The translations under genes were made by a program, and so were the position numbers. Of a stretch of 30,916 nucleotides of DNA, positions 2,101 through 25,480 are shown piece after piece. The stretch's first letter is position 1. Each line of letters starts with the position of its first letter. The stretch is from an uncultured Methyloversatilis sp. (GTDB taxonomy: Bacteria > Pseudomonadota > Gammaproteobacteria > Burkholderiales > Rhodocyclaceae), in assembly GCA_964555165.1 (NCBI GenBank), contig CAZKRN010000040.1:1-30916 (forward strand), given 5' to 3'. The notes below the pieces were generated by a model that worked only from the letters and a program-made list of their open reading frames with translations, was not told the DNA's origin and did not search any database.

Positions 2101-3096
2101 TCACGCGGCGCTCTGGCGCCGGCCGGGTGCCGCCTCCTCCTGCCCGGCGCCGCACACCTGCATGCTCAAGCCGGTCGCCCGGCTGAGTTGATCCTGCACA
2201 TGCTTCTGGCCGTGCTCGATCAGGAAGCCCTGGAAGTCGGCCGCTACGCGGGTGAGCTGGCGCGATGCGAGCCGGATCACATACCACTCCCGTTCTATCG
2301 GATTGCCGGCTACCGGCAACAGGGTCAGTTCGCCGGATTCGATCTCGTGCCGGCAGATGTGCTGCGACATGAACGCAAGGCCGAAGCCGGCAGCGCACAT
2401 CTGCTTGATCGCCTCATTGCTGGACAGTTCGGAGCCGATGCGCAGATTCAGCCCGGCTTCGCGGAAAAGCTGTTCCAGCGTGGTGCGCGTGCCCGAACCG
2501 CGTTCGCGCACCAGCAGGTCTTCGCGCGCGATATCGCCCAGCGTCAGGCGCTTGCGCGCCATCAGCGGATGCGACGGTGCGGCGACGAAAGCCATGGTGT
2601 GGCGCGCAAACGGCGTGGCCACGGTTTTCAGGTCCTTGGGCGGGCGTCCCATGATGACCAGATCGACTTCCTGCGTGGTGAGCAGGCGCACGATTTCATC
2701 GCGGTTGCCGACCTTGAGTTTCACCTCGACGTTCGGCTGTTCGCGCGCAAACACCACGAGCATGCGCGGCACCAGGTACTCGGCGGTGGTCACCACACCG
2801 ATGCGCAGCCGGCGCGAGACGACGCCGCGATAGGCCGCCATTTCGTCCCCCGCCTCGCGCCACAGGTCGAGAATGCGCGCCGCGTAGTCGGCCATCAGCT
2901 GGCCGGCACCGGTCAGCCGTATGCCCCGCCCCTCGCGCTCGATCAGCGGCGTGCCGGCGGATTCCTCCAGCAGCTTGAGCTGTATCGACACCGCCGGCTG
3001 GGTCAGGTGGATTTCCTGCGCCGCACGCGAAACACTGCCCAGGCGGGCGACGGCGTGCAGTGCGGACAACTGGCGCAAGGTGGCGTTCTTCAGCAT
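2101..3096 (-). CDS. cbbR: LysR-type transcriptional regulator CbbR (RuBisCO operon activator)
   Basis: N-terminal 'MLKNATLRQLSALHAVARLGSVSRAAQEIHLTQPAVSIQLKLLEE' is a canonical LysR wHTH. The gene is divergent from cbbL with about 370 bp between them. Start chosen at ATG 3096 (the ORF track extends to 3159). C-terminal LysR substrate-binding domain of expected length (331 aa). Confidence 0.85.
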   Translation of the reverse strand: MLKNATLRQLSALHAVARLGSVSRAAQEIHLTQPAVSIQLKLLEESAGTPLIEREGRGIRLTGAGQLMADYAARILDLWREAGDEMAAYRGVVSRRLRIGVVTTAEYLVPRMLVVFAREQPNVEVKLKVGNRDEIVRLLTTQEVDLVIMGRPPKDLKTVATPFARHTMAFVAAPSHPLMARKRLTLGDIAREDLLVRERGSGTRTTLEQLFREAGLNLRIGSELSSNEAIKQMCAAGFGLAFMSQHICRHEIESGELTLLPVAGNPIEREWYVIRLASRQLTRVAADFQGFLIEHGQKHVQDQLSRATGLSMQVCGAGQEEAAPGRRQSAA

Positions 3097-4933
<1,837 letters not shown>

Positions 4934-4958
4934 CCCGACCTGCGAAGACGTTGCGCTC

Positions 4959-5084
4959 GACGCCCTTCTCCCCTCGCCCGCATCGGCGGGAGAGGGGCCG
5001 GAGGTAAGGGAACGCGGCCGCGGCCCTCACCCGGCGCTGCGCGCCACCCTCTCCCGCCGATGCGGGCGAGGGATTGAAGAAACC
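4959..5084. repeat. GC-rich composite palindromic intergenic element (REP-like), copy A, between cbbL and cbbS
   Basis: The two arms are reverse complements of each other (CCCCTCGCCCGCATCGGCGGGAGAGGGG ... CCCTCTCCCGCCGATGCGGGCGAGGG). Each arm is itself a 12-bp hairpin. The element shares about 85% identity over about 70 nt, including the flanking 'GACGCCCTTCTCCCCTC' and 'TTGAAGAA', with a second copy at 9873-9978. Confidence 0.7.
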
Positions 5085-5102
5085 CGATTCAGGAGAACCA
5101 CC

Positions 5103-5522
5103 ATGCGCATCACCCAAGGCACCTTCTCTTTCCTGCCCGAACTGAGCGACACACAGATCCGCGCCCAGATCGAATACTGTCTGGCCAGGGGCTGGGCGGT
5201 CGGCATCGAGTACACGGACGACCCTCACCCGCGCAACACCTTCTGGGACATGTACGGCAACCCCATGTTCGACCTGCGCGACCCGGCGGCCATCATGCTG
5301 GAGGTGCAGGCCTGCCGCGACACTTTCCCGCAGCACTACATCCGCGTCACCGCTTTCGACTCGACGCACGGCACCGAATCGGTGGTGCTGTCCTTCATCG
5401 TGAACCGGCCCGATGCCGAGCCGGGATTCCGCCTCGTCCGCACCGAAGAGCCGGGCCGCACGGTGCGCTACGCGATCGAGAGCTACGCGGTGCAGTCGCG
5501 CCCCGAGGGCGCGCGCTACTGA
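5103..5522 (+). CDS. cbbS: RuBisCO small subunit (red-type)
   Basis: 139 aa starting '[57 protein letters not shown]', typical form IC/ID small subunit. RBS AGGAGAA 7 nt upstream of ATG 5103. Confidence 0.95.
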
Positions 5523-5532
5523 GCCGGCCGGA

Positions 5533-6465
5533 ATGAACGCCGCCACCCTGATCCCGACCGCGCCGGCAGCCGCCGACGAGGCGATGTCGCCGCGCGCGAT
5601 GGCTGCCGCATCCGGCGTGCAGGCGCTGCTCGATCGGCTCGACGCCGAACTGGTCGGGCTGGCGCCGGTCAAGGGCCGCATCCGCGACATCGCGGCGCTG
5701 CTGCTGATCGACCGGCTGCGCGCGCAGCAGGGCCTGCAGTCGCAGCCGCCCTCGCTGCACATGTGCTTCACCGGCAACCCCGGCACCGGCAAGACCACGG
5801 TGGCGCTGCGCATGGCCGAGGTGCTGCGCCAGCTCGGCTATGTGCGCAAGGGGCATCTGGTGGCGGTCACCCGCGACGACCTGGTGGGGCAGTTCATCGG
5901 CCACACCGCGCCCAAGACCAAGGAAGTGATCAAGAAGGCCATGGGCGGCGTGCTGTTCATCGACGAGGCCTACTACCTGTACCGGCCGGAAAACGAGCGC
6001 GACTACGGCCAGGAAGCCATCGAAATCCTGCTGCAGGTGATGGAGAACCACCGCGACGATCTGGTGGTGATCCTCGCCGGCTACGGGGACCGCATGGATA
6101 CCTTTTTCTCCAGCAACCCCGGCATGGCCTCGCGCATCGCGCACCACATCGACTTCCCGGACTACGGCGAGGACGAACTGATGCGCATTGCCGAGCTGAT
6201 GCTGGCCGGCCTGAACTACCACTTCGACCGTGCCGCGCACGAGGCCTTCGCGCGCTACATCGCGCTGCGCCGCCGGCTGCCGCATTTCGCCAACGCGCGT
6301 TCGGTGCGCAATGCGCTGGACCGCATCCGGCTGCGCCACGCCACCCGGCTGTTCGCGGCGGACAGCGCGCCCAGCCGCGACGCGCTGTGCGAACTCCGGG
6401 CGCCGGACGTGCTGGCCAGCCGTGTGTTCGACGCCGCCGGGATCGAGGACGGACATGCGCACTGA
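5533..6465 (+). CDS. cbbX: CbbX AAA+ RuBisCO activase (red-type)
   Basis: Walker A '[11 protein letters not shown]', Walker B '[11 protein letters not shown]', sensor 'ILAGY'. Sits in the expected position after cbbS. Start at ATG 5533 ('MNAATLIP...') rather than ORF-track 5413. Confidence 0.9.
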
Positions 6466-7222
6466 TGCCCTGGTTTTCGACGTCGACGGCACGCTGGCCG
6501 ACACCGAAGAGGCGCACCGCGTCGCCTTCAACCTGGCGTTCGAACAGGCCGGCCTGGGCTGGAAGTGGACCCGAGCCGACTACCGCCGGCTGCTCGCCAC
6601 CACAGGCGGCAAGGAGCGCATCGCGCGTCACATCGCGGCACTCGACCTGAGCGAGGCCGAGCGTGCCGAGCTGGTCGCGCGCATCCCGCATATCCACGCA
6701 AGCAAGACCCGTCTTTACAGTGCCGTGGTGCGCGACGGCGCGGTGCCGCTGCGCACCGGCATCGCCCGCCTGCTGGACGAAGCGGCTGCCGCCGGCTGCC
6801 GCCTGGCCATCGCCAGCACCACCACCGCAGCGAATATCGACGCACTGCTGCACGCCACGCTGGGCGCGCGCGCGCTCGACCTGTTCGGCGTCATCGCCTG
6901 CGGCGACCAGGTCGCGGCGAAGAAACCGGCGCCCGACATCTATCGCCTCGCGCTGCGCCACCTCGGTGTGCGCCCCGAACGCGCGATCGCCTTCGAGGAT
7001 TCCGCCAACGGCCTGCGCGCCGCCCGTGCCGCCGGACTGTGGACCGTGGTCACGCCCACCTACTGGAGCGAGGACCATGACTTCCCGGACGCCAGCCTGC
7101 GTCTTCCGCATCTGGGCGACCCGGCCACGCCGCTGACCGGCGAACCGGGCAACCGGCTGCGCGAACAGGCTTGGCTCACCTTCGCCGAACTGAACAGCCT
7201 GCGCGAGGCGGCGCTGTCATGA
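6455..7222 (+). CDS. cbbY: HAD-family phosphatase CbbY (xylulose-1,5-bisphosphate phosphatase-like)
   Basis: '[26 protein letters not shown]' HAD motif I (DxDGT). Motif III 'K' and motif IV 'FEDSANG' present. Overlaps cbbX by 11 nt and cbbE by 4 nt (ATGA). Position matches cbbY of characterised cbb operons. Confidence 0.8.
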
Positions 7223-8004
7223 GCGTGCGCATCGCCCCCAGCCTGCTGTCGGCCGACTTCGCTCGCCTCGGCGCGGAAGTGAGCGCGGTGATCGAGGCCG
7301 GCGCCGACCTCATCCACTTCGATGTCATGGACAACCACTACGTGCCCAATCTGACCGTGGGGCCACAGGTATGTCAGGCGATCAGGCCCTACGCGGTGCG
7401 GACCCCCGGCAGCGGCGGGCCGCTGCCGCCCCCCGAGGGGGCCGCCGACGGTCTCCGGAACGGCCGGGCGCCCGCCCGCACAGCGGTGCCGATCGACGTG
7501 CATCTGATGGTGAAGCCGGTCGATGCGCTGATCCCGATGTTCGCGAACGCCGGTGCCGACATCGTGTCCTTCCATCCGGAAGCGAGCGAGCACATCGACC
7601 GCACGCTCCAGCTCATCCACTCGCACGGCCTGAAAGCCGGGCTGGTGCTGAACCCGGCCACACCGCTCAATGTGCTGGACCACGTGCTGGACCGGCTCGA
7701 CCTTGTACTGCTCATGTCGGTGAACCCGGGCTTCGGCGGTCAGCGCTTCATCGAATCGGTACTGCCCAAGATCGAGGCGGTACGCCGTCGCATAACCGCC
7801 AGCGGCCGCGACATCTGGCTGGAAGTCGATGGCGGCGTGAATGCCGACAACGCCGGTCGCGTCGCCGCCGCCGGCGCCGACACCCTGGTCGCCGGGTCGG
7901 CCGTATTCACCGGCGGCCGTTATGCCGAATCCATCCGCACCCTGCGCGAACGCGCACTGGCCGGCCGAGCGCCGAGCCCCGAACCCGAGGCCCACCATGT
8001 CTGA
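7219..8004 (+). CDS. cbbE: Ribulose-phosphate 3-epimerase carrying an in-frame insertion of about 28 aa
   Basis: '[18 protein letters not shown]...[17 protein letters not shown]...[11 protein letters not shown]...[13 protein letters not shown]...VDGGV' are canonical Rpe motifs. Between 'CQAIR' and 'IDVHLMV' there are 35 residues where E. coli and Cupriavidus Rpe have about 7. Confidence 0.9.
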
Positions 8005-8710
8005 GCTGCAGCGCGCACTGAGCCGCATCCACGCCATCGCCTTCGACCTCGACGGCACCCTGGTCGACAGTGCCGCCGACATCTGGCACGCGCTGAACGC
8101 GGGCCTGAGCGAAGCCCGTCTGCCCGCCATCGATCTGCCCACGGTGCGCGGCTGGATAGGCGGCGGGCCGGACAAGCTCATCGCGCGCGCGCTCGACCAC
8201 CTGGGCAGACCGGGCGACGGCCCGCTGGCCGCGCGCCTGCGCGCCGACTTCGACCGCGCCACGCTGGCCGCGCCGCTCGATCGCGGCATGGTCTATGACG
8301 GCATCGACGAAATGGTCGAAGGGCTTTACGCACTGTGCCCGCTGGTGGTGGTGACCAACAAGCCGACTCTGCTGGCCCGCGCAGTGCTGGGCGCAGCCGG
8401 CCTGCTGCCCTTCATGTCGGCCGTGCATGGCGGCGACCGGAGCGAACTGCTCAAGCCCTCGCCGACCCTGCTCATCGAGGCCGCCGGTCGCCTGGCTGTC
8501 CAGGCGCGACAGATGCTGATGGTGGGCGACAGCGAGGCCGATCTGCAGGCGGCCCGGGCCGCCGGCTGCCCGGTCGCGCTGGTCGGCTGGGGATACGGGA
8601 CGGCCGGTGGCGCGCACGCCTCTGCCGCCGGCATCGCACCCTGCTTGCTGACGCGCCCGGGCGAGCTGCTGGCCGCGATGAGCGCGCGTTTCGAGGAAGA
8701 GACCGGGTAG
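7997..8710 (+). CDS. cbbZ: Phosphoglycolate phosphatase (HAD superfamily)
   Basis: '[29 protein letters not shown]' (DxDGT motif I), 'VVVTNKP' (motif II-like), '[14 protein letters not shown]' (motif IV). Start overlaps the cbbE stop by 8 nt. Confidence 0.8.
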
Positions 8711-8788
8711 CGCCCGAGACCCCAAACGGCGCAGCGCCACACAGAGGGCACGCGCATCAGGACATTCACATCGACGGAGGAGAGAATC

Positions 8789-9874
8789 ATGCCCACAGGC
8801 GGACGCACCACGCTGGTCCAGTACCTGATCGAAGAACGCCGTCGCCACCCGGAGGCGACCGGTGACCTCAACGCGCTGATCACCGACGTCGCACTCGCCT
8901 GCAAGGCGATCGCGCGCAAGGTGGCGTTCGGCGCCCTGGCCGGCGTCCTCGGCGTGAACGCTGTCGAGGCAGGCCGCATCAATGTGCAGGGCGAAGAACA
9001 GAAGACGCTGGACGTGCTCAGCAACGGCATCTTCCTGCGCGCCAACGAATGGGGCGGCCACCTCGCGGCGATGGCCTCGGAAGAGCTGGACGACATATCG
9101 CTGCCGCCGGCGCAGTACCCGCGCGGCAAATACCTGCTGGCTTTCGATCCACTGGACGGCTCGTCCAACATCGACGTTAACGTGTCGGTCGGCAGCATTT
9201 TCTCGATCACCCGCGCGCCCGATCCGGCACGCGACGCCACCGCGACCGACTTCCTGCAGCCGGGCCGCGAACAGGTGTGCGCCGGCTACGCGATCTACGG
9301 CCCCTCCACCATGCTGGTGATCACGCTGGGTCGCGGCACGCACGGCTTCACGCTGGACCCGGTGCTGGGCGAATGGGTGCTCAGCCACCCGGCGCTCAAG
9401 GTGCCAGCGGCCACCCGCGAGTTCGCGATCAACGCGTCGAACAGCCGTTTCTGGGAGCCGGCGGTGCGCCGCTACGTCGACGAATGCCTGGCCGGACGTA
9501 CCGGCCCCCGCTGCGCCGATTTCAATATGCGCTGGATCGCCTCGCTGGTCGCCGAAACCCACCGCATCCTGATGCGCGGCGGCGTCTTCCTCTACCCGAA
9601 AGACAACAAGGATCCGGCAAAGCCCGGCCGCCTGCGCCTGCTGTACGAAGCCAGCCCGATTTCCTTCCTGATCGAACAGGCGGGCGGCCGCGCCAGCACC
9701 GGTCGCAAGCGGCTCATGGACGTGCAGCCGGAAGCGCTGCACCAGCGCATCGGCTTCGTGTTCGGCTCGGCCGATGAGGTCGAGCGCATCGAGGCCTACC
9801 ACCGCGAGCCGCCCGCCGACACCTTCCAGTCGCCGCTGTTCGGCAAGCGCGGCCTGTTCGCCGATGCGCTCTGA
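8789..9874 (+). CDS. cbbF: Fructose-1,6-bisphosphatase class 1 (also likely sedoheptulose bisphosphatase)
   Basis: 'LVQYLIEE...[18 protein letters not shown]', '[11 protein letters not shown]', '[26 protein letters not shown]', '[10 protein letters not shown]' are FBPase-I signatures. RBS GGAGGAGAG. Confidence 0.9.
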
Positions 9875-9978
9875 CGCCCTTCTCCCCTCTCCCGCATCGG
9901 CGGGAGAGGGGCCGGGGGTGAGGGCACGGCGCTGCGCGCCACGCTCCCGCGCTGACGCAGGCGAGGGTTTGAAGAATC
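9873..9978. repeat. GC-rich composite palindromic intergenic element (REP-like), copy B, between cbbF and cbbP
   Basis: Starts at the cbbF stop codon (cTGAcgccc). Left arm 'CCCCTCTCCCGCATCGGCGGGAGAGGGG' is a perfect 12-bp hairpin. Right arm is degenerate relative to copy A. Same flanks (GACGCCCTTCTCCCCTC ... GGCGCTGCGCGCCAC ... GGCGAGGG(T/A)TTGAAGAA). Confidence 0.65.
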
Positions 9979-10003
9979 GCATCAAGATCGAAAGGATTGT
10001 TCC

Positions 10004-10882
10004 ATGTCCGTGAAACACCCCATCGTCGCCATCACCGGTTCGTCCGGTGCCGGCACCTCATCGGTCACACGCACCTTCGAGAACATCTTCCGCCGGGAAG
10101 GCGTGTCCGCCGCCGTCATCGAGGGCGACAGCTACCACCGCTACGACCGCACCGAAATGAAGAAGGCGATGGCGGACGCCGAGGCCGGCGGACGCCCGCA
10201 CTTCAGCCACTTCGGCGAAGACGCCAACCTGTTCGCGGAGCTGGAACAGCTCTTTCGCGACTACTCGGAAAGCGGCACCGGGCGCAGCCGCAAATACCTG
10301 CACAACGACGAGGAAGCCGCGCCCTTCCAGCAGCCGGCCGGCACCTTCACGCCCTGGGCGCAGCTGCCGGAAAGCGAACTGCTGTTCTACGAGGGACTGC
10401 ACGGCGGCGTGAAGACCGAACATGTTGATGTATCCCGGTACGCCGATCTGCTGATCGGCGTGGTGCCTGTCATCAACCTCGAGTGGATCCAGAAGATCCA
10501 CCGGGACCGCAGCACCCGCGGCTATTCCACCGAAGCCGTGACCGACGTCATCCTGCGCCGCATGCACGACTACGTGCACTACATCTGCCCGCAATTCACG
10601 CGCACTCACATCAACTTCCAGCGCGTGCCGGTGGTCGACACCAGCGACCCCTTCATCGCGCGCACGATTCCGACCGCCGACGAAAGTCTGGTGGTGATCC
10701 GCTTCGCCAATCCGCGCGGCTTCGACTTCCCCTATCTGCTCAGCATGCTGCACGACTCCTGGATGTCGCGCGCCAACACGCTGGTGGTGCCCGGCGGAAA
10801 GATGGAACTGGCGATGCAGCTCATCTTCACGCCGATGATCCTGCGTCTGGTCGAACGCCGCCGCCAGCAGCGGGCCGCCTGA
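10004..10882 (+). CDS. cbbP: Phosphoribulokinase
   Basis: 'MSVKHPIVAITGSSGAGTSSV' P-loop and overall PRK/URK family layout (292 aa). RBS AAAGGA. Confidence 0.95.
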   Translation: MSVKHPIVAITGSSGAGTSSVTRTFENIFRREGVSAAVIEGDSYHRYDRTEMKKAMADAEAGGRPHFSHFGEDANLFAELEQLFRDYSESGTGRSRKYLHNDEEAAPFQQPAGTFTPWAQLPESELLFYEGLHGGVKTEHVDVSRYADLLIGVVPVINLEWIQKIHRDRSTRGYSTEAVTDVILRRMHDYVHYICPQFTRTHINFQRVPVVDTSDPFIARTIPTADESLVVIRFANPRGFDFPYLLSMLHDSWMSRANTLVVPGGKMELAMQLIFTPMILRLVERRRQQRAA

Positions 10883-10892
10883 GGAGAGCGCG

Positions 10893-12932
10893 ATGAACGA
10901 CATGAACGCTTCCCTGTTCCTGCGCACGCAGTGCGCCAACGCTCTGCGCGCGCTGTCGATGGACGCGGTGCAGGCCGCGAATTCCGGCCACCCGGGCATG
11001 CCGATGGGCATGGCCGACATCGCCGAGGCGCTGTGGCGCCACCACCTGAAGCACGACCCGGCCGACCCGCACTGGCCGGACCGCGACCGCTTCGTGCTGT
11101 CCAACGGTCACGGCTCGATGCTGCTGTATGCGCTGTTGCACCTGTCGGGCTACGACCTGCCGATGGACGAGCTGCGCCGCTTCCGGCAGCTGCATTCGCG
11201 CACGCCCGGCCACCCCGAGGTCGACGTCACGCCGGGTGTCGAAACCACCACCGGCCCGCTCGGTCAGGGTATCGCCAACGCGGTCGGCATGGCGCTGGCG
11301 GAAAAGCTGCTCGCCGCCGAATTCAACCGGCCGGGCCATACGGTGATCGACCACCGCACCTGGGCGTTCGTCGGCGACGGCTGCCTGATGGAGGGCATCA
11401 GCCACGAAGCGTGTTCGCTGGCCGGCACCTGGCAGCTTTCCAAACTGGTGGTGTTCTACGACGACAACGGCATTTCCATCGACGGCGATGTAGGCGGCTG
11501 GTTCACCGACGATACGCCTGCGCGCTTCGAAGCCTATGGCTGGGCCGTGGTGCGCCATGTCGACGGCCACGACCCGGTGGCGCTGGACGCCGCCATCGAC
11601 ACCGCGCTGACCAGCGACCGGCCGGTGCTGGTCTGCTGCAGGACGCGCATCGGCCAGGGTTCGCCGAACCGCGCCGGCACCGCCAGGGCGCACGGCGAGG
11701 CGCTGGGCGAGGCGGAGATCGCGCTCACCCGCGAAGCGCTGGGCTGGCGCGCCCCACCCTTCGACATACCGGATGCACTGCGCGACGCCTGGTCGGCAAG
11801 GGAAGGCGGAGCGAGCGCCCACCGCGCCTGGCAGCAGCGCTTCGACCACTACGCCAGGGCCTTTCCCGAGCTGGCCGCCGAACTGCGTCGCCGGCTGCGG
11901 CGCGACGCGCCGCTCGCTTCGGACGCACTGCGCGCGCTCGAAGCCGCCTGCGAAGCCGCCGAAGCGCGTGCCGCCGCGGTCGCCACACGCAAGGCCTCGC
12001 AGGACTGCCTGCACATCGTCGCGCCGTCGATGCCCGAACTGCTCGGCGGCTCGGCCGACCTCACCGGCTCCAACCTGACCGACTGGAAGGGCCACCGGCC
12101 GCTCAAGGGAGAGGGCACCGGCAACCACGTGCATTACGGCGTGCGCGAATTCGGCATGGCGGCGGTGATGAATGGCGTGGCACTGCACGGCGGCTACCGG
12201 CCCTTCGGCGGCACCTTCCTCACCTTCTCCGACTACGCGCGCAACGCCATCCGCATGTCGGCGCTGATGAAGCTGCCGGTCACCTATGTATTCACGCACG
12301 ACTCGATCGGCCTCGGCGAGGACGGCCCCACCCACCAGCCGGTCGAGCACGCGGCCAGCCTGCGGCTCATTCCGGGGGTAGACGTCTGGCGGCCGGCCGA
12401 CGCCACCGAAACCGCAGTGGCCTGGCGCGCGGCACTGCGCCGTGGCGCCAGTCCCGATCCCGGCCCGACCTGCCTGCTGCTGTCGCGCCAGGCGCTGCCG
12501 CACGCCGGCGACGGCACGCCGCGCATCGACGACATCGCGCGCGGCGGCTACGTGCTGCGCGCACCGCGCGACGAACAGGTGTGCCTGATCGCCACCGGCT
12601 CCGAAGTCGCGATCGCGCTGCGCGCCGCCGAAGAGCTGGCCGCCGAAGGCATCGCCGCGCGCGTGGTGTCCATGCCCTGCGTCGAGGTGTTCGAGCGGCA
12701 GGAGGAGGACTGGCGCAGGACGGTGATTCCGCGCCACCTGCCGCGGCTGGCCATCGAAGCCGGGCGCACCGCGATGTGGTGGAAGTACGTCGGCGAACGG
12801 GGCGATGTGGTGGGGCTGGACCGCTTCGGCGAATCGGCGCCCGCCGCCCGGCTGTTCGATCTGTTCGGCCTGACGCCGCCGGCAGTCGCCGCGCGGGCGC
12901 GCGCGCTGCTCGCTGCGGGCGAACGCGCATGA
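10893..12932 (+). CDS. cbbT: Transketolase
   Basis: 679 aa. 'GHPGMPMGMADIA', 'GDGCLMEGISHEA', 'THDSIGLGEDGPTHQPVEHAASLR' are TPP-binding and transketolase motifs. RBS GGAGAG. Confidence 0.95.
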   Translation: MNDMNASLFLRTQCANALRALSMDAVQAANSGHPGMPMGMADIAEALWRHHLKHDPADPHWPDRDRFVLSNGHGSMLLYALLHLSGYDLPMDELRRFRQLHSRTPGHPEVDVTPGVETTTGPLGQGIANAVGMALAEKLLAAEFNRPGHTVIDHRTWAFVGDGCLMEGISHEACSLAGTWQLSKLVVFYDDNGISIDGDVGGWFTDDTPARFEAYGWAVVRHVDGHDPVALDAAIDTALTSDRPVLVCCRTRIGQGSPNRAGTARAHGEALGEAEIALTREALGWRAPPFDIPDALRDAWSAREGGASAHRAWQQRFDHYARAFPELAAELRRRLRRDAPLASDALRALEAACEAAEARAAAVATRKASQDCLHIVAPSMPELLGGSADLTGSNLTDWKGHRPLKGEGTGNHVHYGVREFGMAAVMNGVALHGGYRPFGGTFLTFSDYARNAIRMSALMKLPVTYVFTHDSIGLGEDGPTHQPVEHAASLRLIPGVDVWRPADATETAVAWRAALRRGASPDPGPTCLLLSRQALPHAGDGTPRIDDIARGGYVLRAPRDEQVCLIATGSEVAIALRAAEELAAEGIAARVVSMPCVEVFERQEEDWRRTVIPRHLPRLAIEAGRTAMWWKYVGERGDVVGLDRFGESAPAARLFDLFGLTPPAVAARARALLAAGERA

Positions 12933-13804
12933 GGGCCGCACGCATTGCCATCGACGGCGACGGCCCGGTCGCCCGCAGCGTGCTGCGTGCGCTGGCCGGT
13001 CGCGACGACCTGCATCTGGTCGCCATGAACGCGACCGGACACCCGCACGAGGTCGACACCGGCGTGCCGCGGCTGCGCGTGCGCGACGCGCGACGCCTGC
13101 CCTGGAAGCGGCACGCGGTCGACATCGTGCTCGACTGCAGCGGCCGCGACGCACGCGACCACCTCCGGGCCGGTGCGCGCAAGGTATTGAGCTGCACGTC
13201 GTCCGGCGCGGCGGCCGATACAACCGTCGTGTATGGCATCAATCATCGAGCGCTGCGCGACAGCCATCTGCACGTGCACAGCGCATGCCGGGTGACACAC
13301 TGCATCGCGCCGGTCGCGCGTGTGCTGCACGACGCCCTCGGCATTTCGAATGCGATGCTCACCCGCGTGCACAGCCGGCCACACGATGCCGAGCCGGAGC
13401 CCGCCGCCACGGCGCGACCCGCCGGTGCGGCCGAACATCTGCACCGCGTGCTGCCTGAACTGGATCACTGCTTCGACGAAACCGAACCGATGCGCATCGC
13501 CGGCGCGTACGCATCGCTGGTCGGCATGGTGTTCATCGCTCGCCGCGCCAGCACGGCGGATGAGGTGAACGGACTGCTGCAGGCCGCAGCCGCCGGCGAC
13601 TGGTCCGACATCGTGCGCTACGGCGACACGCCCTTCACCACCGCACTGTGCGACCGCGATACGCGCTCCTGCATCTTCGAATCCGGCTGGACCCAGGTGT
13701 CCGGCCGCATCGTGAAGGTGTGCGCCGGCAACCATGGCGACCTCGGGTACGCCCACCGCGTGGTCGACACCGCCCGCGCCATGCACCGCCCTCCTAGCCC
13801 CTAG
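12929..13804 (+). CDS. Highly divergent, shortened GAPDH-like protein at the cbbG position (possible pseudo-enzyme or decaying gene)
   Basis: 292 aa, collinear with GAPDH over its full length: 'RIAIDGDGPVARSVLRAL' aligns with 'KVGINGFGRIGRNVFRAA', 'SACRVTHCIAPVARVLHDALGI' with '[21 protein letters not shown]', 'LTRVHS' with 'MTTVHA', 'VLPEL' is retained. The glycine-rich NAD loop is degraded. There is a 1-aa insertion at the catalytic Cys motif and deletions of about 25 and 10 aa. ATG overlaps the tkt stop. Confidence 0.6.
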   Translation: MRAARIAIDGDGPVARSVLRALAGRDDLHLVAMNATGHPHEVDTGVPRLRVRDARRLPWKRHAVDIVLDCSGRDARDHLRAGARKVLSCTSSGAAADTTVVYGINHRALRDSHLHVHSACRVTHCIAPVARVLHDALGISNAMLTRVHSRPHDAEPEPAATARPAGAAEHLHRVLPELDHCFDETEPMRIAGAYASLVGMVFIARRASTADEVNGLLQAAAAGDWSDIVRYGDTPFTTALCDRDTRSCIFESGWTQVSGRIVKVCAGNHGDLGYAHRVVDTARAMHRPPSP

Positions 13805-13830
13805 CCCCTAGCCCCTAGCCCCTAGCCCCC
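13791..13830. repeat. (CCCCTAG)x5 heptanucleotide tandem repeat
   Basis: TAG at 13795, 13802, 13809, 13816 and 13823, exactly 7 nt apart. The stop codon of the GAPDH-like ORF (13802-13804) lies inside the repeat. Because 7 is not a multiple of 3, the array places a TAG in every forward frame. The fba RBS GAGGA follows immediately. Confidence 0.8.
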
Positions 13831-13842
13831 GAGGATTTGACC

Positions 13843-14859
13843 ATGCCCATGATTTCCCTGCGCCAGCTGCTGGATCACGCCGCCGAACACGGCTACGGCG
13901 TACCGGCCTTCAACATCAACAACCTGGAACAGATACAGGCCATCATGCAGGCGGCGCAGAAGGTGAATGCACCGGTCATCCTGCAGGCGTCGGCCGGCGC
14001 GCGGAAGTATGCGGGCGAGCCCTTCCTGCGCCGCATGGTGGAAGCGGCGGCGGAAATGTATCCTGCGCTGCCCATCGTGCTGCACCAGGACCACGGCGCC
14101 AGCCCGGCGGTATGCGTGCAGGCCATCCGCTCGGGCTTCACCAGCGTCATGATGGATGGCTCGCTGATGGAGGACGCGAAGACGCCCGCCAGCTATGAGT
14201 ACAACGTGGACGTGACGCGCCGCGTGGTCGACATCGCGCACGCGGTCGGCGTGTCGGTGGAAGGCGAACTGGGCTGCCTCGGTTCGCTCGAATCCGGCAC
14301 CGCTGGCGAGGAGGACGGCGTCGGCGCAGCCGGCGTGCTCACCCATGACCAGATGCTGACCGACCCGGACCAGGCCGCCGACTTCGTCGCCGCCACCGGC
14401 GTCGATGCGCTGGCCATCGCCATCGGCACCAGTCACGGCGCCTACAAGTTCTCGCGCGAGCCGACCGGCGACATCCTCGCCATCGACCGCATCAAGGCCA
14501 TCCATGCGCGCATCCCGGACACCCATCTGGTCATGCACGGGTCGAGCAGCGTGCCGCAGGACTGGCTGGGCATCATCCGCGCGCACGGCGGCGACATCCG
14601 CGAAACGTACGGCGTGCCGGTCGAGGAAATCCAGGAAGGCATCCGCCACGGCGTGCGCAAGGTGAATATCGACACAGACATCCGCCTTGCCATGACCGGC
14701 GCAATGCGCCGCGCGATGGCGCGCGACCCGTCGGAATTCGACCCGCGCAAGTTCATGAAAGACGCCATGACCGCCGCCCGCGACCTCTGCATCGAGCGCT
14801 TCGAAGCCTTCGGCTGCGCCGGCATGGCCGGGCGCATCGTGCTGCGCAAGGCGGCCTGA
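13843..14859 (+). CDS. cbbA: Fructose/sedoheptulose-bisphosphate aldolase, class II (Calvin-cycle subtype)
   Basis: '[56 protein letters not shown]', '...LHQDHG', 'SVMMDGS' and '[11 protein letters not shown]' are class-II FBA signatures. RBS GAGGA 7 nt upstream. Confidence 0.92.
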
Positions 14860-14875
14860 GCATCGCGAAAACACA

Positions 14876-14974
14876 CCCTCGTGGGAGCGGTCCTCCGACC
14901 GCGACCGCGGCGCCCGACTGGCAGACAGCGCTTGATCACAGGCCGCGTCGGGGTCAGAAGACCCCTCCCACAGG
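14876..14974. repeat. Long imperfect inverted repeat (arms of about 35 bp, spacer about 30 bp) between convergent fba and helicase genes; candidate bidirectional terminator or REP-like element
   Basis: Left arm 'CCCTCGTGGGAGCGGTCCTCCGACCGCGACCGCGGC' pairs with the reverse complement of 'GCCGCGTCGGGGTCAGAAGACCCCTCCCACAGG', with about 80% complementarity including small indels. No U-tract. Confidence 0.45.
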
Positions 14975-15008
14975 CTCTCGCCCGGAGCAACCCGATGCAC
15001 GAACCGCA

Positions 15009-16871
15009 TCAAGCGGTTGCAGCGGTCCCGAGTATGGCCTTCAGCCGCGCCGCGAACCCGCGCTCGGCGGAAGCGGTCACCAGCAGGCGCTCGGTCGAAC
15101 GTGTCATCGCGACATAGAGCAGTTTGGCGTCAGCCGCCACGCGCTCCGTGTCATCCTCTGCTCGCGGCAGCGTGTGGGTGCCGCAAACGACCATGAAGGG
15201 AAACTCCAGCCCCTTGCTGCTGTGCATGGTCATCAGTTTCACTGTGTCTTCCGACGGGCTGAAGCGGCGCTTCGATTGCGAATCGGACAGCCAGTGCACC
15301 GGTATCGATGACGCCTTCAGATAGCGATGCAGGCGGTCGCCGATGTACCTGTCGGGGCAGGCGATACACATGTCGGCCCAGGCCACGCCGCGCTCCGCGT
15401 GCATCTTCTTCAGCGTGCGGGTGATGAGCGCCATTTCGTCGCGGTCGGATCCGACGATGCGCAGCACCGGTGGCGGGCCGCGACGCCCGCTCGACTGAGG
15501 CTCGATCAGTGGCACATGATCGTCGTCGGCATCTGCCGCGGTCAGGTAGACGCGAGCAAAGTCGTAGGCGAAACGAATCACATCCTCGGTGTTGCGATAG
15601 TTCAGCTTGAGTACCGTGCTGCGGCCACGTGCTTGTATGCCCACGCTGGACAGGCTGAAGTCCAGGCCACCACGTTTGCCGTAGATCGACTGCGCGTCGT
15701 CATACAGCATCAGGAAGGAACTGGTTTCCGGGTCGACCATGCCAACGATGAGGCGCAACCACTCCGGCGCGAAATCGTGCCCCTCGTCGATCATCACCGC
15801 ACCGTATTGAGCGCGCGGTATGAGGCCCTTGTCGACGGCGTCGATCACGGTGGATACGAGCTGCTCGAAATAGTCCTTTCCCGTTGCCGGGCGCTCGACG
15901 TGATAGGCCCGCAACTGTTCGCTGCACCAGTCGTGGAAGTGATAGACGCTCACCTTGTCAGCGATACCACGGCTGGCGATAAGGTCACGCAGCCGTGCGG
16001 CCAGCGCGATGTTGTAGCAGAGCACGAGAATGGGTTTCGCGAGCAGCTTGGCCAGATGCAGGCAACGGTAGCCAAGGATGAGCGTCTTGCCGGAGCCGGC
16101 CACGCCATGGATGACGCGGTGCCCGTCGCCCAGGCTGCGGGCCAGCAGTTCCTGCTGCATGTCCATCACCTTGACGAGATCCGGCAGCACGCTATCGGCC
16201 GAAGCTTCGTCATCGACCTCAGCAAACAGGTCCGCCTGCTGATGACCGATGCGCACCTCCGGAAACAGGTGCCAACGGATGCGGTCGATCTGCGGCAGCG
16301 TGAGACTTTGCGGAAAGCTCACGTCAAACATGCTCCACAGCCGCTGCTGAAACTCCTCGGCGTCGCTTGCCTCGCGCATTTCGTCGGCGCAGATGACGCG
16401 ATGTGGCGGCAGAACGTCGCCGAGGTCGGTACCGTCGAACTGCTTGCGCGTCATGCCGCTGAGCACTACGCCATAGCCCCAGGGCAGTACGAGCTTGCCG
16501 CGATATCGACCGTCCTGTTGAACCAGCTGGGGATCGCGCTCCAAGTCGCCGATGAGCTGATAGGCGCACTGCCTTACCTGTTCCAGCGGATTGCTCACCA
16601 CCCGCGGTCCCGCCTCGGTCAGTATCTGCGCCGATACGCGGTCGATGGACTGTATGGTGGCGAGCCGCCAGTCCTTCACTTCCAGCAGCAGCAGGCCACG
16701 GCGGGGGTGCAGGACGATGAAGTCCGAGTACCGCCGGCGGTCGCCGACCGGCATGTCATACCAGCACAGGTAGTCGTCTTCCAGCTTGTCTTCGAGCCGC
16801 TGCGCAAAACGTCGTTCGCCCGCCTGCATTCGGGACGTACACGCGCTGTATGAGGGAATGAGCGTAGCCAT
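15009..16871 (-). CDS. NERD-domain + UvrD/Rep-like superfamily-1 helicase
   Basis: N-terminal 'YLCWYDMPVGDRRRYSDFIVLHPRRGLLLLEVKDW' resembles NERD (nuclease-related domain). Walker A 'GVAGSGKTLILGY', 'AVMIDEGHDF' (Walker B / motif II), C-terminal 'MTMHSSKGLEFPFMVV' (UvrD motif V/VI-like). ATG at 16871, 620 aa. Confidence 0.75.
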   Translation of the reverse strand: MATLIPSYSACTSRMQAGERRFAQRLEDKLEDDYLCWYDMPVGDRRRYSDFIVLHPRRGLLLLEVKDWRLATIQSIDRVSAQILTEAGPRVVSNPLEQVRQCAYQLIGDLERDPQLVQQDGRYRGKLVLPWGYGVVLSGMTRKQFDGTDLGDVLPPHRVICADEMREASDAEEFQQRLWSMFDVSFPQSLTLPQIDRIRWHLFPEVRIGHQQADLFAEVDDEASADSVLPDLVKVMDMQQELLARSLGDGHRVIHGVAGSGKTLILGYRCLHLAKLLAKPILVLCYNIALAARLRDLIASRGIADKVSVYHFHDWCSEQLRAYHVERPATGKDYFEQLVSTVIDAVDKGLIPRAQYGAVMIDEGHDFAPEWLRLIVGMVDPETSSFLMLYDDAQSIYGKRGGLDFSLSSVGIQARGRSTVLKLNYRNTEDVIRFAYDFARVYLTAADADDDHVPLIEPQSSGRRGPPPVLRIVGSDRDEMALITRTLKKMHAERGVAWADMCIACPDRYIGDRLHRYLKASSIPVHWLSDSQSKRRFSPSEDTVKLMTMHSSKGLEFPFMVVCGTHTLPRAEDDTERVAADAKLLYVAMTRSTERLLVTASAERGFAARLKAILGTAATA

Positions 16872-18783: not shown

Positions 18784-19746
18784 TCAGCGACGCCGGCACA
18801 GTAGCACGCCACCCAGTGCCAGCGCGAAACCGGCCATCTGCAGCGGTGCCAGCCGCTCGCCGAACAGCAGCGCCGCCTGCGCGGCGGCCAGCGGCGGCGC
18901 CAGCAGCACGAGCACACTCACCTTCGCCGCCGAACCGCGGCGCACCATCCACACCAGCAGCGTGCTGCCGATGGCGGACAGGCCGAGCACCGCCCAGGCC
19001 AGCGCCGCCCACAGCGCCGGGCCCGGCACCCACAGCGACTCGCCGAGCGCCAGCGCGATCACCAGGCAGACCAGCGCACCGCCGGCATTCTGGATGGCGC
19101 TCGAACTGAACAGATCCGCAGCGGCAATCGAACTCTTCTGCACCAGCGTGCCGGCAGTGATGCCGGCCACTGCCACCAGCGCCACACCGACCACCAGCGG
19201 CGACAGCGCCTCCGGGCCGACGCTGGCCAGCCGTGGCGCCAGCACCAGCACGACGCCCAGCGCGCCGGCCAGCAGACCGCCCCAGAAATGGCGACCCAGC
19301 GGCTCGTCGAACAGGCGCTGCGCGATCAGCGCGGTGAACATCGGCTGCAGCGTGGCGAGCAGCGCCATCACGGCCGGCGACAGCCCGTGTGCCACCGCCC
19401 AGTAGCCGCCGCCCATGTACACACCCTGCAGCAGCGCCCCGGCCAACAGGTGTTTGGGCCACTGCGCGCGCGCCGGCCAGGCGACACGCAGCACGCCGGC
19501 AATGGCCGCGTACATCAGCGTGGTCAGCGTGAAGCGGGCGAGCAGGAACAGCGCCGGGTCGGCGACACCGTCAATGGCCCGCGCGACGATGAAGCCGGTG
19601 GACCAGACGAGGACGAACAGGGCGGGAGCGATGACGGCGAGCACGGGACGGGACAGGAAGCACGAGGGCTGCGAGTCTGCACCGGCGTCGCGGCGATGTC
19701 TTGTCCAGAACCGCAATCCGGGAACGCCGGTACTCGGCGCAGACAC
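18784..19746 (-). CDS. EamA/DMT-family transporter (two EamA repeats)
   Basis: Strongly hydrophobic, roughly 10 predicted TM helices, with duplicated 'LxxxxLxWGxxF'-type segments ('PALFVLVWSTGFIVAR', 'AGGALVCLVIALALGESL'). The ORF-track start is GTG 19746. The true start is probably an internal GTG near 19644 ('VLAVIAPALF...'). Start uncertain. Confidence 0.7.
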   Translation of the reverse strand: MSAPSTGVPGLRFWTRHRRDAGADSQPSCFLSRPVLAVIAPALFVLVWSTGFIVARAIDGVADPALFLLARFTLTTLMYAAIAGVLRVAWPARAQWPKHLLAGALLQGVYMGGGYWAVAHGLSPAVMALLATLQPMFTALIAQRLFDEPLGRHFWGGLLAGALGVVLVLAPRLASVGPEALSPLVVGVALVAVAGITAGTLVQKSSIAAADLFSSSAIQNAGGALVCLVIALALGESLWVPGPALWAALAWAVLGLSAIGSTLLVWMVRRGSAAKVSVLVLLAPPLAAAQAALLFGERLAPLQMAGFALALGGVLLCRRR

Positions 19747-19788
19747 CTTCCGCCCCCCCGCGTCGCGGCCAGACCAGCCGGATCGCCG

Positions 19789-20826
19789 TCAGCCGTCGCG
19801 GCGAGCCACGACCACCTCGGCCCCGGCCGCGGCTTCGTCCAGCGTGATGGAGAGCGGAAGGAAGGCCTCGATCACCTTCACCACGGTACGACAGTGCGAC
19901 GAAACCGTCGTGCACCGGAACCGCGAACCACCCGCCAGCGAGGCCGGGAGCATGATCTGGTCGGCAAGATGTTCACCCACGGGCGCCGTACCGGCCAGAT
20001 AGGCGCGTACCTGGCGCACCAGCGCGACCGCGACCAGCGCCGCCGGTCGGCCGCGTTCGCCGAAGGCCGAGAAGACCTCGGTGGTTGCGTCGCTCGCTAT
20101 CGTCATCTGCAGTACGTTTCCCGGTCCTTCGTTGGCTGGCAAGAGACGGATGTCGCTGCCGATGTCGGGCAATTGCCCGGCCAGGGCGCGGCTCACGGCC
20201 TCGATTTCGCGGCGTGCGACGTCGGCCGGTACGGCAGCGACGATGGACTCGACCCGGGCACCGCGCAGTGTTCCCCGCTCAAGCAGATGCAATGGATCCA
20301 GCCGGGCGACGGGCACCGTGCGGGCGACCAGCCGCCCGCCCCCGGCCGGGTAGAAACCGTGCCTGGGCACGTCGATATCCACGGACGCACCGATGGCACG
20401 CACGTGCGGCACCCAGGCGCGCAGAAGAAAGTCCGCCGTGGGCGCCGCACTGTTGTGCGTGCCACCGCTGATCTCGACCGTGGACGGCGCGTCGGCATGC
20501 CAGAGCGCAGGCAACAGGGTCTGCAGCACCAGCGTCGTACTGCCCGCCGAGCCGATGGCGAATCGATAGTCTCCGCCGCGCACCCGTCCGGGAACGAAGG
20601 TCAGCGCCTGCGACCCCGGCTCAAGCCCGCTGACGCGCGCGCCGCAGATTTCGGCCGACGCACCGACGGCCACCATATGCTGCCTGAGCAGTCCGGGGCG
20701 CGGGCGTCCGGCGCGGATGCGCGTCATGCGGAAGGGGCGTCCGGTGACCATGGACAGGGAAAGTGCGGTACGCAGAATCTGCCCACCCCCTTCGCCGACG
20801 GATCCATCGAGTTCCAGCATGTCCAT
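19789..20826 (-). CDS. rtcA: RNA 3'-terminal phosphate cyclase
   Basis: 'MDMLELDGSVGEGGGQILRTALSLSMVTGRPFRMTRIRAGRPRPGL', then 'EISGGTHNSAAPTADFL' containing the catalytic His of the RtcA family. One nt separates it from the rtcB stop. Confidence 0.9.
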   Translation of the reverse strand: MDMLELDGSVGEGGGQILRTALSLSMVTGRPFRMTRIRAGRPRPGLLRQHMVAVGASAEICGARVSGLEPGSQALTFVPGRVRGGDYRFAIGSAGSTTLVLQTLLPALWHADAPSTVEISGGTHNSAAPTADFLLRAWVPHVRAIGASVDIDVPRHGFYPAGGGRLVARTVPVARLDPLHLLERGTLRGARVESIVAAVPADVARREIEAVSRALAGQLPDIGSDIRLLPANEGPGNVLQMTIASDATTEVFSAFGERGRPAALVAVALVRQVRAYLAGTAPVGEHLADQIMLPASLAGGSRFRCTTVSSHCRTVVKVIEAFLPLSITLDEAAAGAEVVVARRDG

Positions 20827-20827
20827 G

Positions 20828-22039
20828 TCAGCCTTTCACACAGACGATCTGGCTGAGCGTATGGACGACTTCCACAAGCTCGCTCTGGGCCGCCATCACG
20901 GCATCGATGTTCTTGTACGCCATCGGAATCTCGTCGATCACATCGGCGTCCTTGCGGCATTCGACATGCGCCGTCGCCTTGATCTGGTCGTGCACCGAAT
21001 AGCGTCGCTTCGCCTCGTTGCGGCTCATGGTGCGCCCGGCACCGTGACTGCACGAACAGAACGACTGCTCGTTGCCCAGACCGCGGACAATGAAGCTGCG
21101 CGCACCCATGGAGCCGGGGATGATGCCGAGTTCGCCGCGCCTGGCCGATACCGCACCCTTGCGGGTGACCAGCAGGTCGACGCCGAAATGCTCTTCCCGC
21201 TGCACGTAGTTGTGATGGCAGTTCACGGCCTCCACGTCGGCGCGGAAGGGTTTTCCGATTACCGCGCGTGCGGCATCGACGACATGCGCCATCATCACGG
21301 CACGGTTGCGCCGCGCGAAATCCTGCGCCCAGCCGACCGCCTCGACGTAGTCATCGAAGTGCGCACTGCCTTCTTCGAAATAGGCCAGATCGCGGTCGGG
21401 CAGGTTTGCGATGTGTTGCCTCATGTCCTGCTGCGCCAGTTCGATGAAATGGCTTCCGATCGCATTGCCGACGCCACGGGACCCCGAGTGCAGCATGAAC
21501 CACACCTGCTGCGCCTCGTCGACACACACTTCGATGAAGTGATTGCCGGTACCCAGGGTACCCAGGTGCTTGCGGTTGTTCGTGTTGCGCAGACGGGGAT
21601 GCTTTTCGGCCAGACTGTCGAATCCCTGCGCAAGCGCGCCCCACATGGCATCGACTGCGGGAGGCGGCGTGTCCCACGCGCCCTTGTCGCGTCGACCGCG
21701 ACCGACCGTGCGGCCGTGCGGCACGGCGCGCTCGATCGCGCTGCGCAAGGCAAAGAGATTGTCCGGCAGGTCCGAAGCGGCGAGCGTGGTGCGCGCAGCC
21801 ATCATGCCGCAGCCGATATCCACGCCGACCGCGGCGGGAATGATGGCCCCCTGCGTCGGAATCACGCTGCCTATGGTCGATCCCTTGCCCAGATGCACGT
21901 CAGGCATCACCGCAAGATGACCGAATATGAAAGGCATGCGCGCAGTGTTCATGAGTTGGCGACGGGCTTCCTCTTCCACCGGCACACCTTCGGTCCACAT
22001 CTTGATCGGCTTTCCGCCGCTCACTTCGAGTATCTGCAT
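20828..22039 (-). CDS. rtcB: RNA-splicing ligase RtcB (3'-phosphate/5'-OH ligase)
   Basis: 'MPDVHLGKGSTIGSV', 'DIGCGM', 'NHAGRxxSR-like CSHGAGRTMSR' and 'HNYV' are RtcB metal and GMP-binding motifs. Start at ATG 22039 ('MQILEV...') with AAGGA RBS. The ORF-track start at 22126 is an upstream extension. Confidence 0.92.
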   Translation of the reverse strand: MQILEVSGGKPIKMWTEGVPVEEEARRQLMNTARMPFIFGHLAVMPDVHLGKGSTIGSVIPTQGAIIPAAVGVDIGCGMMAARTTLAASDLPDNLFALRSAIERAVPHGRTVGRGRRDKGAWDTPPPAVDAMWGALAQGFDSLAEKHPRLRNTNNRKHLGTLGTGNHFIEVCVDEAQQVWFMLHSGSRGVGNAIGSHFIELAQQDMRQHIANLPDRDLAYFEEGSAHFDDYVEAVGWAQDFARRNRAVMMAHVVDAARAVIGKPFRADVEAVNCHHNYVQREEHFGVDLLVTRKGAVSARRGELGIIPGSMGARSFIVRGLGNEQSFCSCSHGAGRTMSRNEAKRRYSVHDQIKATAHVECRKDADVIDEIPMAYKNIDAVMAAQSELVEVVHTLSQIVCVKG

Positions 22040-22122
22040 GATCCTGTCCTTTGTGCCGACCGAGGGCTTCGTGCCCCCGGCCCCGCTGCCCCATGCAGCG
22101 GGGCTCACTACGATCGCGGGCG

Positions 22123-23640: not shown

Positions 23641-23730
23641 GACAACAGGCACGAACCCGGTCATCGCGCACCAGAGGGCCTGAACACCCGTCTCGTGGGC
23701 ACTTGCAGTGAAGTGCGATCACAGCCTCTT

Positions 23731-23746: not shown

Positions 23747-23771
23747 AGGTCAAAATTTGCTGCGAAGAAGG

Positions 23772-25476: not shown

Positions 25477-25480
25477 CCGC

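Follow-up and report, generated by a model that had tools for sequence, protein, structure and literature searches.

Repeats named BoxC or PIT (Bachellier et al.; Hoyne et al. 2000) have been described mainly in enterobacteria. Under the later name TMECO they were defined by the pattern CCCTCNCCC, N3-6, GGGNGAGGG, N3, GGGNGAGGG, with 3610 occurrences across 262 proteobacterial genomes (Holder et al., 2015; PMC4666352). All TMECO sites of E. coli K-12 are intergenic, and five of them are inverted pairs, each joining one unit of type A to one of type B, whose 3-nt second loops are TTA and CCG, respectively (PMC4666352). An isolated TMECO strand formed a triplex in vitro, a structure whose purine-motif third strand is impossible in RNA (PMC4666352). 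PIT elements showed neither terminator nor promoter activity in E. coli (Maher and co-workers, cited in PMC4666352). Remnants of transposases or integrases were not seen by Holder et al. in the vicinity of the E. coli copies, and TM loci were more variable between strains than control sites, with small internal deletions in palindromic pairs (PMC4666352). Enterobacter sp. 638 was reported to have 100 palindromes of the form CCCTCTCCCXX(X)GGGAGAGGG, which stand at gene 3' ends, frequently in sets of two or three (PMC2869309). Here, we describe two palindromic copies in the cbb (CO2-fixation) operon of an uncultured Methyloversatilis sp., within a stretch of 30,916 nt (contig CAZKRN010000040.1 of assembly GCA_964555165.1; hereafter, the window). 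With a probability of about 0.7, we consider both to be lineage-specific insertions of a dispersed BoxC/TMECO-type repeat, tolerated 5' of the next ribosome-binding site.

Two palindromic copies and their relation to BoxC/TMECO

According to gene calls on the same-species contig L001, the operon in the window consists of cbbR on the minus strand followed by cbbL, cbbS, cbbX, cbbY, cbbE, cbbZ, cbbF, cbbP, cbbT, cbbG, and cbbA, and a [NiFe] hydrogenase cluster adjoins it. Copy A (4959-5084) lies in the 169-nt cbbL-cbbS spacer and copy B (9873-9978) in the 129-nt cbbF-cbbP spacer. The two copies align without gaps over 64 nt at 89% identity (4959-5022 vs 9873-9936) and over a second block of 50 nt at 86% identity (5032-5081 vs 9927-9976). 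The arms of copy A (4971-4996 and 5047-5072), 26 nt each, are 100% complementary. The hairpin motif CCCTCNCCCGCNNNNGCGGGNGAGGG occurred 4 times in the window with up to 3 mismatches, compared to 0 in 100 shuffles. The predicted RNA folds of the A and B spacers reached -97.8 kcal/mol (z = -5.9 vs shuffles) and -67 kcal/mol (z = -3.0), and the DNA fold of element A reached -53.2 kcal/mol (z = -7.4). With 65.7% G+C and numerous weak inverted repeats, the window is a setting in which chance palindromes would be expected to arise. Since the two copies share long blocks, the arms are complementary, the motif is absent from shuffles and the folds are far more stable than those of shuffled sequence, the palindromic pair is real, belongs to one family and lies far beyond chance. 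Near-identical units were also present in unrelated genomes, and a chance origin, whose probability is practically nil, was rejected.

The coordinates, the similarity of the copies, the hairpin-armed palindrome of copy A and the start of copy B at the cbbF stop codon, all named in the original prediction, were borne out. It had also placed both copies exactly after stop codons, which is true only of copy B. The shared core opens with the G and A of the cbbF TGA (9872-9874), while copy A starts 25 nt past the cbbL TGA (4931-4933).

Both copies consist of two three-box units placed head to head. A unit runs CCCTCNCCC, loop, GGGAGAGGG, loop, GGGTGAGGG, with a pyrimidine box, a purine box and a second purine box on one strand. 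The left units read on the plus strand and the right units on the minus strand, and the third boxes point inwards. The first two boxes make an arm hairpin, CCCCTCNCCCGC-ATCG-GCGGGAGAGGGG, whose stem has 11 of 12 pairs and one G.A mismatch in copy A, and 12 of 12 pairs in B-left. Left units have a 5-nt second loop, GCCGG, and right units one of 14 nt with a GNA mini-hairpin. On the plus strand, A-right reads CCCTCACCC (5024-5032), the mini-hairpin as GGCGC-TGC-GCGCC, then A, CCCTCTCCC (5047-5055), GC-CGAT-GC, and GGGCGAGGG (5064-5072). The third box of A-left is AGGTAAGGG in the window compared to GGGAAAGGG in L001 and in a further same-species contig, L002, and that of B-right, CCCTCACCC, is deleted in the window and present in L002. 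DNA folds leave the third box single-stranded, as in B-left, where it stays unpaired beside a perfect 12-bp hairpin; ViennaRNA folding does not cover triplexes. Just 5' of the C-box, the left flank carries a TTCTC pyrimidine run, which was also seen in the E. coli and Cupriavidus copies. The features are listed in Table 1.

Table 1. Positions of the two palindromic copies, their parts and the genes that flank them in the window.
Feature	Position	Strand	Detail or basis
cbbL, RuBisCO large subunit, 488 aa	3467..4933	+	TGA stop 4931-4933; Pfam gene calls on L001, open reading frame (ORF) list
Copy A, complete head-to-head doublet with flanks common to B	4959..5084		Sequence, repeat search, DNA fold
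Left flank common to A and B, GACGCCCTTCTC	4959..4970	+	Sequence
A-left unit	4971..5010	+	CCCTCGCCC 4971-4979, GC-ATCG-GC, GGGAGAGGG 4988-4996, loop GCCGG, decayed third box AGGTAAGGG 5002-5010
Doublet centre AACGCGGCCGCGG, holding palindrome CGCGGCCGCG	5011..5023		Apical stem in RNA and DNA folds
A-right unit	5024..5072	-	Minus reading: CCCTCGCCC-GCATCGGC-GGGAGAGGG, 14-nt second loop, GGGTGAGGG
A-right mini-hairpin GGCGC-GCA-GCGCC, most of second loop; GNA triloop, C-G closing pair	5033..5045	-	DNA fold
Right flank common to A and B, (A/T)TTGAAGAA	5073..5081	+	Repeat alignment; copy A right flank reads ATTGAAGAA
cbbS, RuBisCO small subunit, 139 aa	5103..5522	+	ATG 5103; AGGAGAA ribosome-binding site 3' of copy A, kept in L067
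cbbF, class 1 fructose-1,6-bisphosphatase, 361 aa	8789..9874	+	TGA stop 9872-9874; gene calls, ORF list
Copy B, same doublet with central deletion and decayed right unit	9873..9978		Sequence, alignment to A and L002
B-left unit, fully intact	9885..9924	+	CCCTCTCCC 9885-9893, GC-ATCG-GC, GGGAGAGGG 9902-9910, GCCGG, GGGTGAGGG 9916-9924
B-right mini-hairpin GGCGC-GCA-GCGCC, surviving	9928..9940	-	Sequence, DNA fold
B-right decayed hairpin CGCTCCCGCGCTGACGCAGGCGAGGG, 3 mismatches to motif	9942..9967		Motif scan
cbbP, phosphoribulokinase, 292 aa	10004..10882	+	ATG 10004; gene calls, ORF list

A full-text literature search with the box sequences led to the TMECO paper. The pyrimidine box CCCTCNCCC followed by the complementary purine box GGGNGAGGG, with 1 mismatch allowed, was found at 4971-4996, at 5047-5072 on the minus strand and at 9885-9910, and a fourth, decayed instance was found at 9942-9967. 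The second purine box is intact as GGGTGAGGG at 9916-9924 in B-left and on the minus strand at 5024-5032 in A-right. Both copies are intercistronic, and both join a short-loop unit to a mini-hairpin-loop unit. The cbb copies thus share with E. coli BoxC/TMECO the box order CCCTCNCCC, GGGNGAGGG, GGGNGAGGG, the frequent G.A mismatch, the strictly intergenic position, the occurrence of the units singly or as head-to-head pairs mixing two second-loop types, the small internal deletions of palindromic pairs between strains, and the lack of a mobility gene nearby. The G.A mismatch (CCCTCGCCC opposite GGGAGAGGG), by which the commonest E. coli type ('mm') is marked, also occurs in the cbb copies and many others; the (G,A,T) box combination that includes it was found in 11 of 33 units in the genome-scan loci. 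In most family members, the middle bases follow purine-motif triads (T or A over A). The E. coli BoxC pair between the co-directional genes hrpB and mrcB, whose sequence we inspected, is likewise head-to-head with third boxes inwards and a TTCT run before the first box, and it starts 12 nt past the hrpB stop. A copy in Cupriavidus sp. EM10 has the same layout after a TAG stop.

The cbb copies differ from the described elements in having two additional G-C pairs in the Watson-Crick stem (11-12 bp, 4-nt loop), a second loop of GCCGG or a 14-nt GNA mini-hairpin in place of 3 nt (TTA or CCG), and a high-GC betaproteobacterium as host. In addition, the triplex was measured for the E. coli strand and is putative for the cbb variant. 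The Enterobacter palindromes have identical hairpin boxes and also stand at gene 3' ends; however, they were described only as a hairpin or presumed terminator with loops of 2-3 nt, and the third box was not discussed (PMC2869309). Judged by their boxes and layout, the cbb copies are a repeat of the BoxC/PIT/TMECO kind with a variant stem and variant second loops. This family, described mainly in enterobacteria, has close relatives in high-GC Betaproteobacteria and beyond, which the published pattern, with loops of 3-6 and 3 nt, misses.

Distribution across cbb operons and variation between strains

Eighty related cbb loci were fetched with CbbF as query, and both spacers were measured. The elements were seen only in contigs 99.3-100% identical to the window, and no three-box unit was found in the 661 kb of the 80 loci. 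In the closest other lineage (L067; CbbF and CbbL 94% identical), the cbbF-cbbP spacer is 38 nt without the element, and the cbbL-cbbS spacer is 135 nt of unrelated sequence in which the ribosome-binding region beside cbbS is conserved. The cbbL-cbbS spacer measured 11-65 nt in 21 of 25 related loci outside the source species, and the cbbF-cbbP spacer was below 70 nt in about 50 of the 69 related loci listed. The nearest plasmid match to the window's cbbLS was that of C. necator (84.7%); the element is lacking on its pHG1, where the corresponding cbbL-cbbS and cbbF-cbbP spacers are 57 and 11 nt. Since they were present in one species only, the elements are, on the operons compared, recent arrivals in one lineage and not a conserved control part of the cbb operon. 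The suggestion that they are REP/MITE-like selfish colonisers of spacers was right in kind, as the family is dispersed, intergenic and palindromic and is absent from the orthologous spacers of the other lineages sampled; the family itself is BoxC/PIT/TMECO and not classical REP. The two palindromes are thus probably recent passengers rather than conserved controls of CO2 fixation, and they should not be annotated as terminators or attenuators on sequence alone.

Long spacers were also found elsewhere. In 11 related loci the cbbF-cbbP spacer exceeds 100 nt and is filled with other palindromic repeats. The repeat families of other lineages in the two spacers fit permissive landing sites, although structured spacers could also be favoured there. 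The cbbL-cbbS and cbbF-cbbP spacers, apparently occupied repeatedly by different repeat families, offer a system for asking whether insertions change the expression of RuBisCO or phosphoribulokinase. The C. necator operon resembles that of the window in having a long structured spacer inside a cbbLSXYEFPT-type operon, the 156-nt cbbS-cbbX spacer on pHG1 (L275:3572-3727), with which the literature connects premature termination. However, this spacer follows cbbS, its sequence is unrelated and it lacks three-box units. Because cbbS-cbbX is 10 nt in the window (5523-5532), the long structured spacers of the two operons stand at different positions.

Three of the other repeat families were recorded. 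One GC-rich palindromic family, unrelated to the three-box units, occupies a cbbL-cbbS spacer (L071:2298-2413) and a cbbF-cbbP spacer (L128:7075-7185) in loci whose CbbF is 78-79% identical to that of the window. In lineages further removed from the window, a family containing ...CCCCCTCAAGGGGGG...CGGCCCGGC...GCCGGTTCCGCGGTG... was seen in the cbbF-cbbP spacers of L077, L084, L107, and L131, and an AT-richer family, AATAGCTG...GGGCTAGAGCC, in those of L094, L106, L109, L134, and L136.

The window and the contigs L001 and L002 diverged by about 0.4-0.55% overall. Within the elements, strain differences were found at 5002, 5005, 5035, and 9916-9926, together with a 20-nt indel, and thus in third boxes and centres, while the hairpin arms were almost unchanged. 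The B spacer of L002 is a 149-nt allele that keeps the centre and CCCTCACCC, and the window allele is 20 nt shorter in the centre. These results indicated that the centres of the elements change faster between strains than the background. As far as these alleles go, the pattern matches the small deletions of palindromic pairs described by Holder et al. (PMC4666352). Outside the elements, a 7-nt indel at 13793-13799 (the window has CCTAGCC, L001 and L002 do not) falls within the final cbbG codons, so that the cbbG C-terminus and stop differ between strains.

The similarity of the two copies possibly extends a further 7 nt leftwards (TGCGCTC, from 9865), into the two final codons of cbbF, and the CbbF C-terminus reads ...ADAL in the window compared to ...ADIV in L067. 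Because of this extension and the different CbbF tail, the stop of cbbF and the two codons before it may, on admittedly thin evidence, have come from the insertion. The empty sites of L067 are too diverged to align, which leaves the insertion footprint and any target duplication undefined.

Alternative explanations and proposed mechanism

The original prediction also offered partial terminators as a function of the elements, that is, intrinsic (Rho-independent) hairpins attenuating transcription after cbbL and cbbF. GC-rich hairpins directly 3' of coding regions have the right position, and premature termination after cbbS in the C. necator cbb operon, which Schaeferjohann et al. reportedly observed in 1996, would be a precedent. 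However, neither copy is followed by a T-tract (the tails are ATTGAAGAAACC and TTTGAAGAATCG), and a scan found no terminator-like site at either copy. A stop between cbbL and cbbS would moreover starve the small subunit, and PIT elements were inactive as terminators (PMC4666352). Since the T-tract is lacking and the element is not conserved outside one species, an evolved terminator function is very unlikely and this part of the prediction was given up. The RNase-protective hairpins that the prediction named beside it likewise found no support as an evolved function. The same scan found no promoter-like site anywhere in 3000-16000, and a promoter reading was rejected. A reading that does not exclude insertion is that the hairpins have been exapted, being kept for differential stability or processing of operon segments, for instance by shielding the 3' ends of cbbL and cbbF from exonucleases or by offering RNase III a site within the perfect 26-bp duplex of copy A. 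In E. coli, upstream mRNA is stabilised by REP/BIME elements, and in Neisseria RNase III cleaves Correia elements. The predicted RNA folds are highly stable, both copies share one orientation and precede an unpaired ribosome-binding site, every same-species contig seen has retained them, and the 11 long cbbF-cbbP spacers with other palindromic repeats also fit. Yet neither the closest other species nor C. necator has the element, and copy B is decaying, having lost its third box and right hairpin while its centre varies between strains. In addition, the cbbL-cbbS junction would be a strange location for a strong hairpin that uncouples two subunits needed 1:1, and transcription in E. coli was not measurably affected by PIT elements (PMC4666352). 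We regard exaptation as rather unlikely, though less so than any other alternative.

The elements could also be of REPIN type, in which case a REP-associated tyrosine transposase (RAYT) encoded at another locus would mobilise the REP doublet in trans. REP/BIME elements and REPINs, for which Stern 1984, Nunvar 2010 and Bertels and Rainey 2011 are said to be the sources, are likewise short imperfect palindromes, dispersed, intergenic and often inverted doublets, able to stabilise upstream mRNA. They are another sequence family, distinguished by the GTAG tag, while the third purine box distinguishes the cbb copies. The cbb copies are inverted doublets of short imperfect palindromes forming a long hairpin, and the inverted REP doublet is reportedly the REPIN architecture of Bertels and Rainey. 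GACG stands at the left end of both copies and is the complement of CGTC, a tag that Di Nocera et al. in 2013 are said to have described in some palindromic repeats. The DNA-type GNA mini-hairpin also hints at recognition as folded single-stranded DNA. However, the genes in the ~40 kb around the copies include neither a RAYT nor another transposase, GACG occurs at one end only with no counterpart at the right end, GTAG is absent, and REPs have nothing equivalent to the conserved third box. In E. coli, the RAYT is associated with classical REP sequences and not with BoxC; we know of no link between RAYT and BoxC and of no enzyme that mobilises BoxC. The absence of transposase and integrase remnants near TMECO sites (Holder et al.; PMC4666352) points the same way, and a REPIN origin is unlikely. 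Integron attC sites were rejected, as the sequence lacks GTTRRRY/RYYYAAC core sites. Correia elements of Neisseria and ERIC/IRU resemble the copies in their size of 100-150 bp, terminal inverted repeats of ~26 nt, position in transcribed spacers and RNA hairpins altering mRNA processing. They differ in their defined target duplications and unrelated sequences, whereas the cbb copies are built of separable modules also found singly, with no duplication visible.

Several results weigh against insertion of a BoxC/TMECO-type repeat. The 8 nt between the first two boxes (GCATCGGC) exceed the N3-6 spacing, because four of them form two extra G-C pairs and leave a 4-nt loop, and the second loops are 5 or 14 nt instead of 3. 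Neither length fits the literal TMECO pattern, and the copies are therefore filed as a variant and not as members by the published definition. The ~40 kb of source genome covered (the window and ~9 kb upstream) holds just two copies, and none of the 26 loci of a genome-collection scan came from the source species. As to a MITE, copy A has a perfect 26-nt inverted repeat; neither copy shows a direct repeat at its edges, which are themselves not fixed. Two copies in one operon, with the recurrent occupation of the spacers in other lineages, could also reflect selection for structured spacers.

On the favoured reading, insertion of a BoxC/TMECO-type repeat, the element would have arrived in the ancestor of the source species and been tolerated in two intercistronic spacers. 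CCCTCNCCC and GGGAGAGGG would form the hairpin, and GGGTGAGGG would be able to fold back as a third strand, making a purine-motif triplex in single-stranded DNA. Two head-to-head units, one with the short loop and one with the mini-hairpin loop, would make a palindrome of ~120 bp, presumably unstable at the DNA level. Co-transcription with the operon would give very stable mRNA hairpins without a U-tract. Because the elements appear to be tolerated insertions and their hairpins lack a U-tract, any effect on mRNA would be only a by-product, most likely as a barrier to 3'-to-5' exonucleases or a target of double-strand RNase, which would uncouple the stability of the cbbL or cbbF segments from that of downstream segments. 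An incidental effect of the hairpins on mRNA decay or processing is plausible.

Relatives in other genomes and further features of the window

In the genome-collection scan, the hairpin with the window's ATCG loop was found in 26 genome contigs. These span several phyla, and seven belong to one Betaproteobacteria metagenome-assembled genome (MAG), JBKCXU01. The third box and second loop of JBKCXU01 are near-identical to those of the window. This MAG carries both unit types, singly and as tail-to-tail pairs, with single units near-identical to A-right on L047, L054, and L062. In a gammaproteobacterial MAG (L043:2300-2560), at least 3 units of 87 nt form a direct tandem array, each holding an ATCG-loop three-box unit. 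Since units occur singly, tail-to-tail and in tandem, the unit itself is the module, and the doublet of the window is one of several arrangements. BLAST against plasmids returned 12 records only, with matches to half of the element in Azospirillum and Cupriavidus, the Cupriavidus record being unannotated. Rfam gave no match at gathering thresholds, and the sub-threshold matches to miRNA models at the element are meaningless.

The generic hairpin was found in 34 viral or prophage contigs. Second loops of 10-24 nt were taken from viral contigs irrespective of their content, and unique loops after the C-box were counted (n = 91). A GNA triloop with a stem of at least 3 bp was present in 44 of these 91, compared to 1.9 ± 1.3 in shuffled loops (maximum 6, 500 shuffles). 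There were 41 distinct GNA stem/loop combinations, mostly closed by C-G, including the exact GGCGC-GCA-GCGCC of the window. The third box was kept in alpha-, beta-, and gammaproteobacterial and other contigs. By these counts, the GNA mini-hairpin of the second loop is conserved, with covarying stems, across many contigs, and this sizeable subclass gives a handle on the nature and spread of BoxC-type repeats. DNA hairpins of the C-GNA-G type, GCGAAGC among them, have exceptional stability, so that the mini-hairpin and the conserved third box suggest that the constraint acts on the DNA fold rather than on RNA. The third strand, which cannot form in RNA, points in the same direction (PMC4666352). 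A speculative extension, to which we give a small chance, is that the three-box unit is selected as folded single-stranded DNA and recognised by a putative single-strand-specific enzyme that copies or moves units. BoxC-type repeats would then be a mobile class of structured single-stranded DNA, and the cbb copies its recent products.

A related hairpin, CCCTCCCCCGC-NNNN-GCGGGGGAGGG, was observed in the viral contigs L009, L013, L019, L021, L022, L026, L031, L035, L037, and L039. It repeatedly lies just upstream of a conserved ORF starting ATGTCGCTGACCGC(A/C/G)CTCGCGCTCTG... (MSLTALALC...), which suggests that this hairpin holds a fixed position in one prophage family.

Downstream of the cbb operon, a 5.9-kb block of the window (19648-25553) is absent from the same-species assembly GCA_041905755.1, in which the EamA gene is followed after ~100 nt by an N-acetyltransferase gene. 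The block carries rtcA (19789-20826), an ORF of 432 aa (20828-22126) and a Band7/SPFH gene (22123-23664), all on the minus strand, and rtcR (23887-25476) on the plus strand. A tRNA-like sequence at 23492-23561 on the minus strand scored 40.3 bits against the Rfam tRNA model and was called 'tRNA-???' by ARAGORN, with no anticodon. Flanked by rtcR and the Band7 gene, it overlaps the mechanical Band7 ORF at the 5' end of the latter. The end of the window (27893-30916) holds a Fic/SoFic gene, an M78-peptidase gene, and an HTH gene. In short contigs that continue the window (L147:545-2917), these are followed by Multi_ubiq, ThiF(E1)/DUF6791, and BubE genes, a set that looks like a bacterial ubiquitin-like system.

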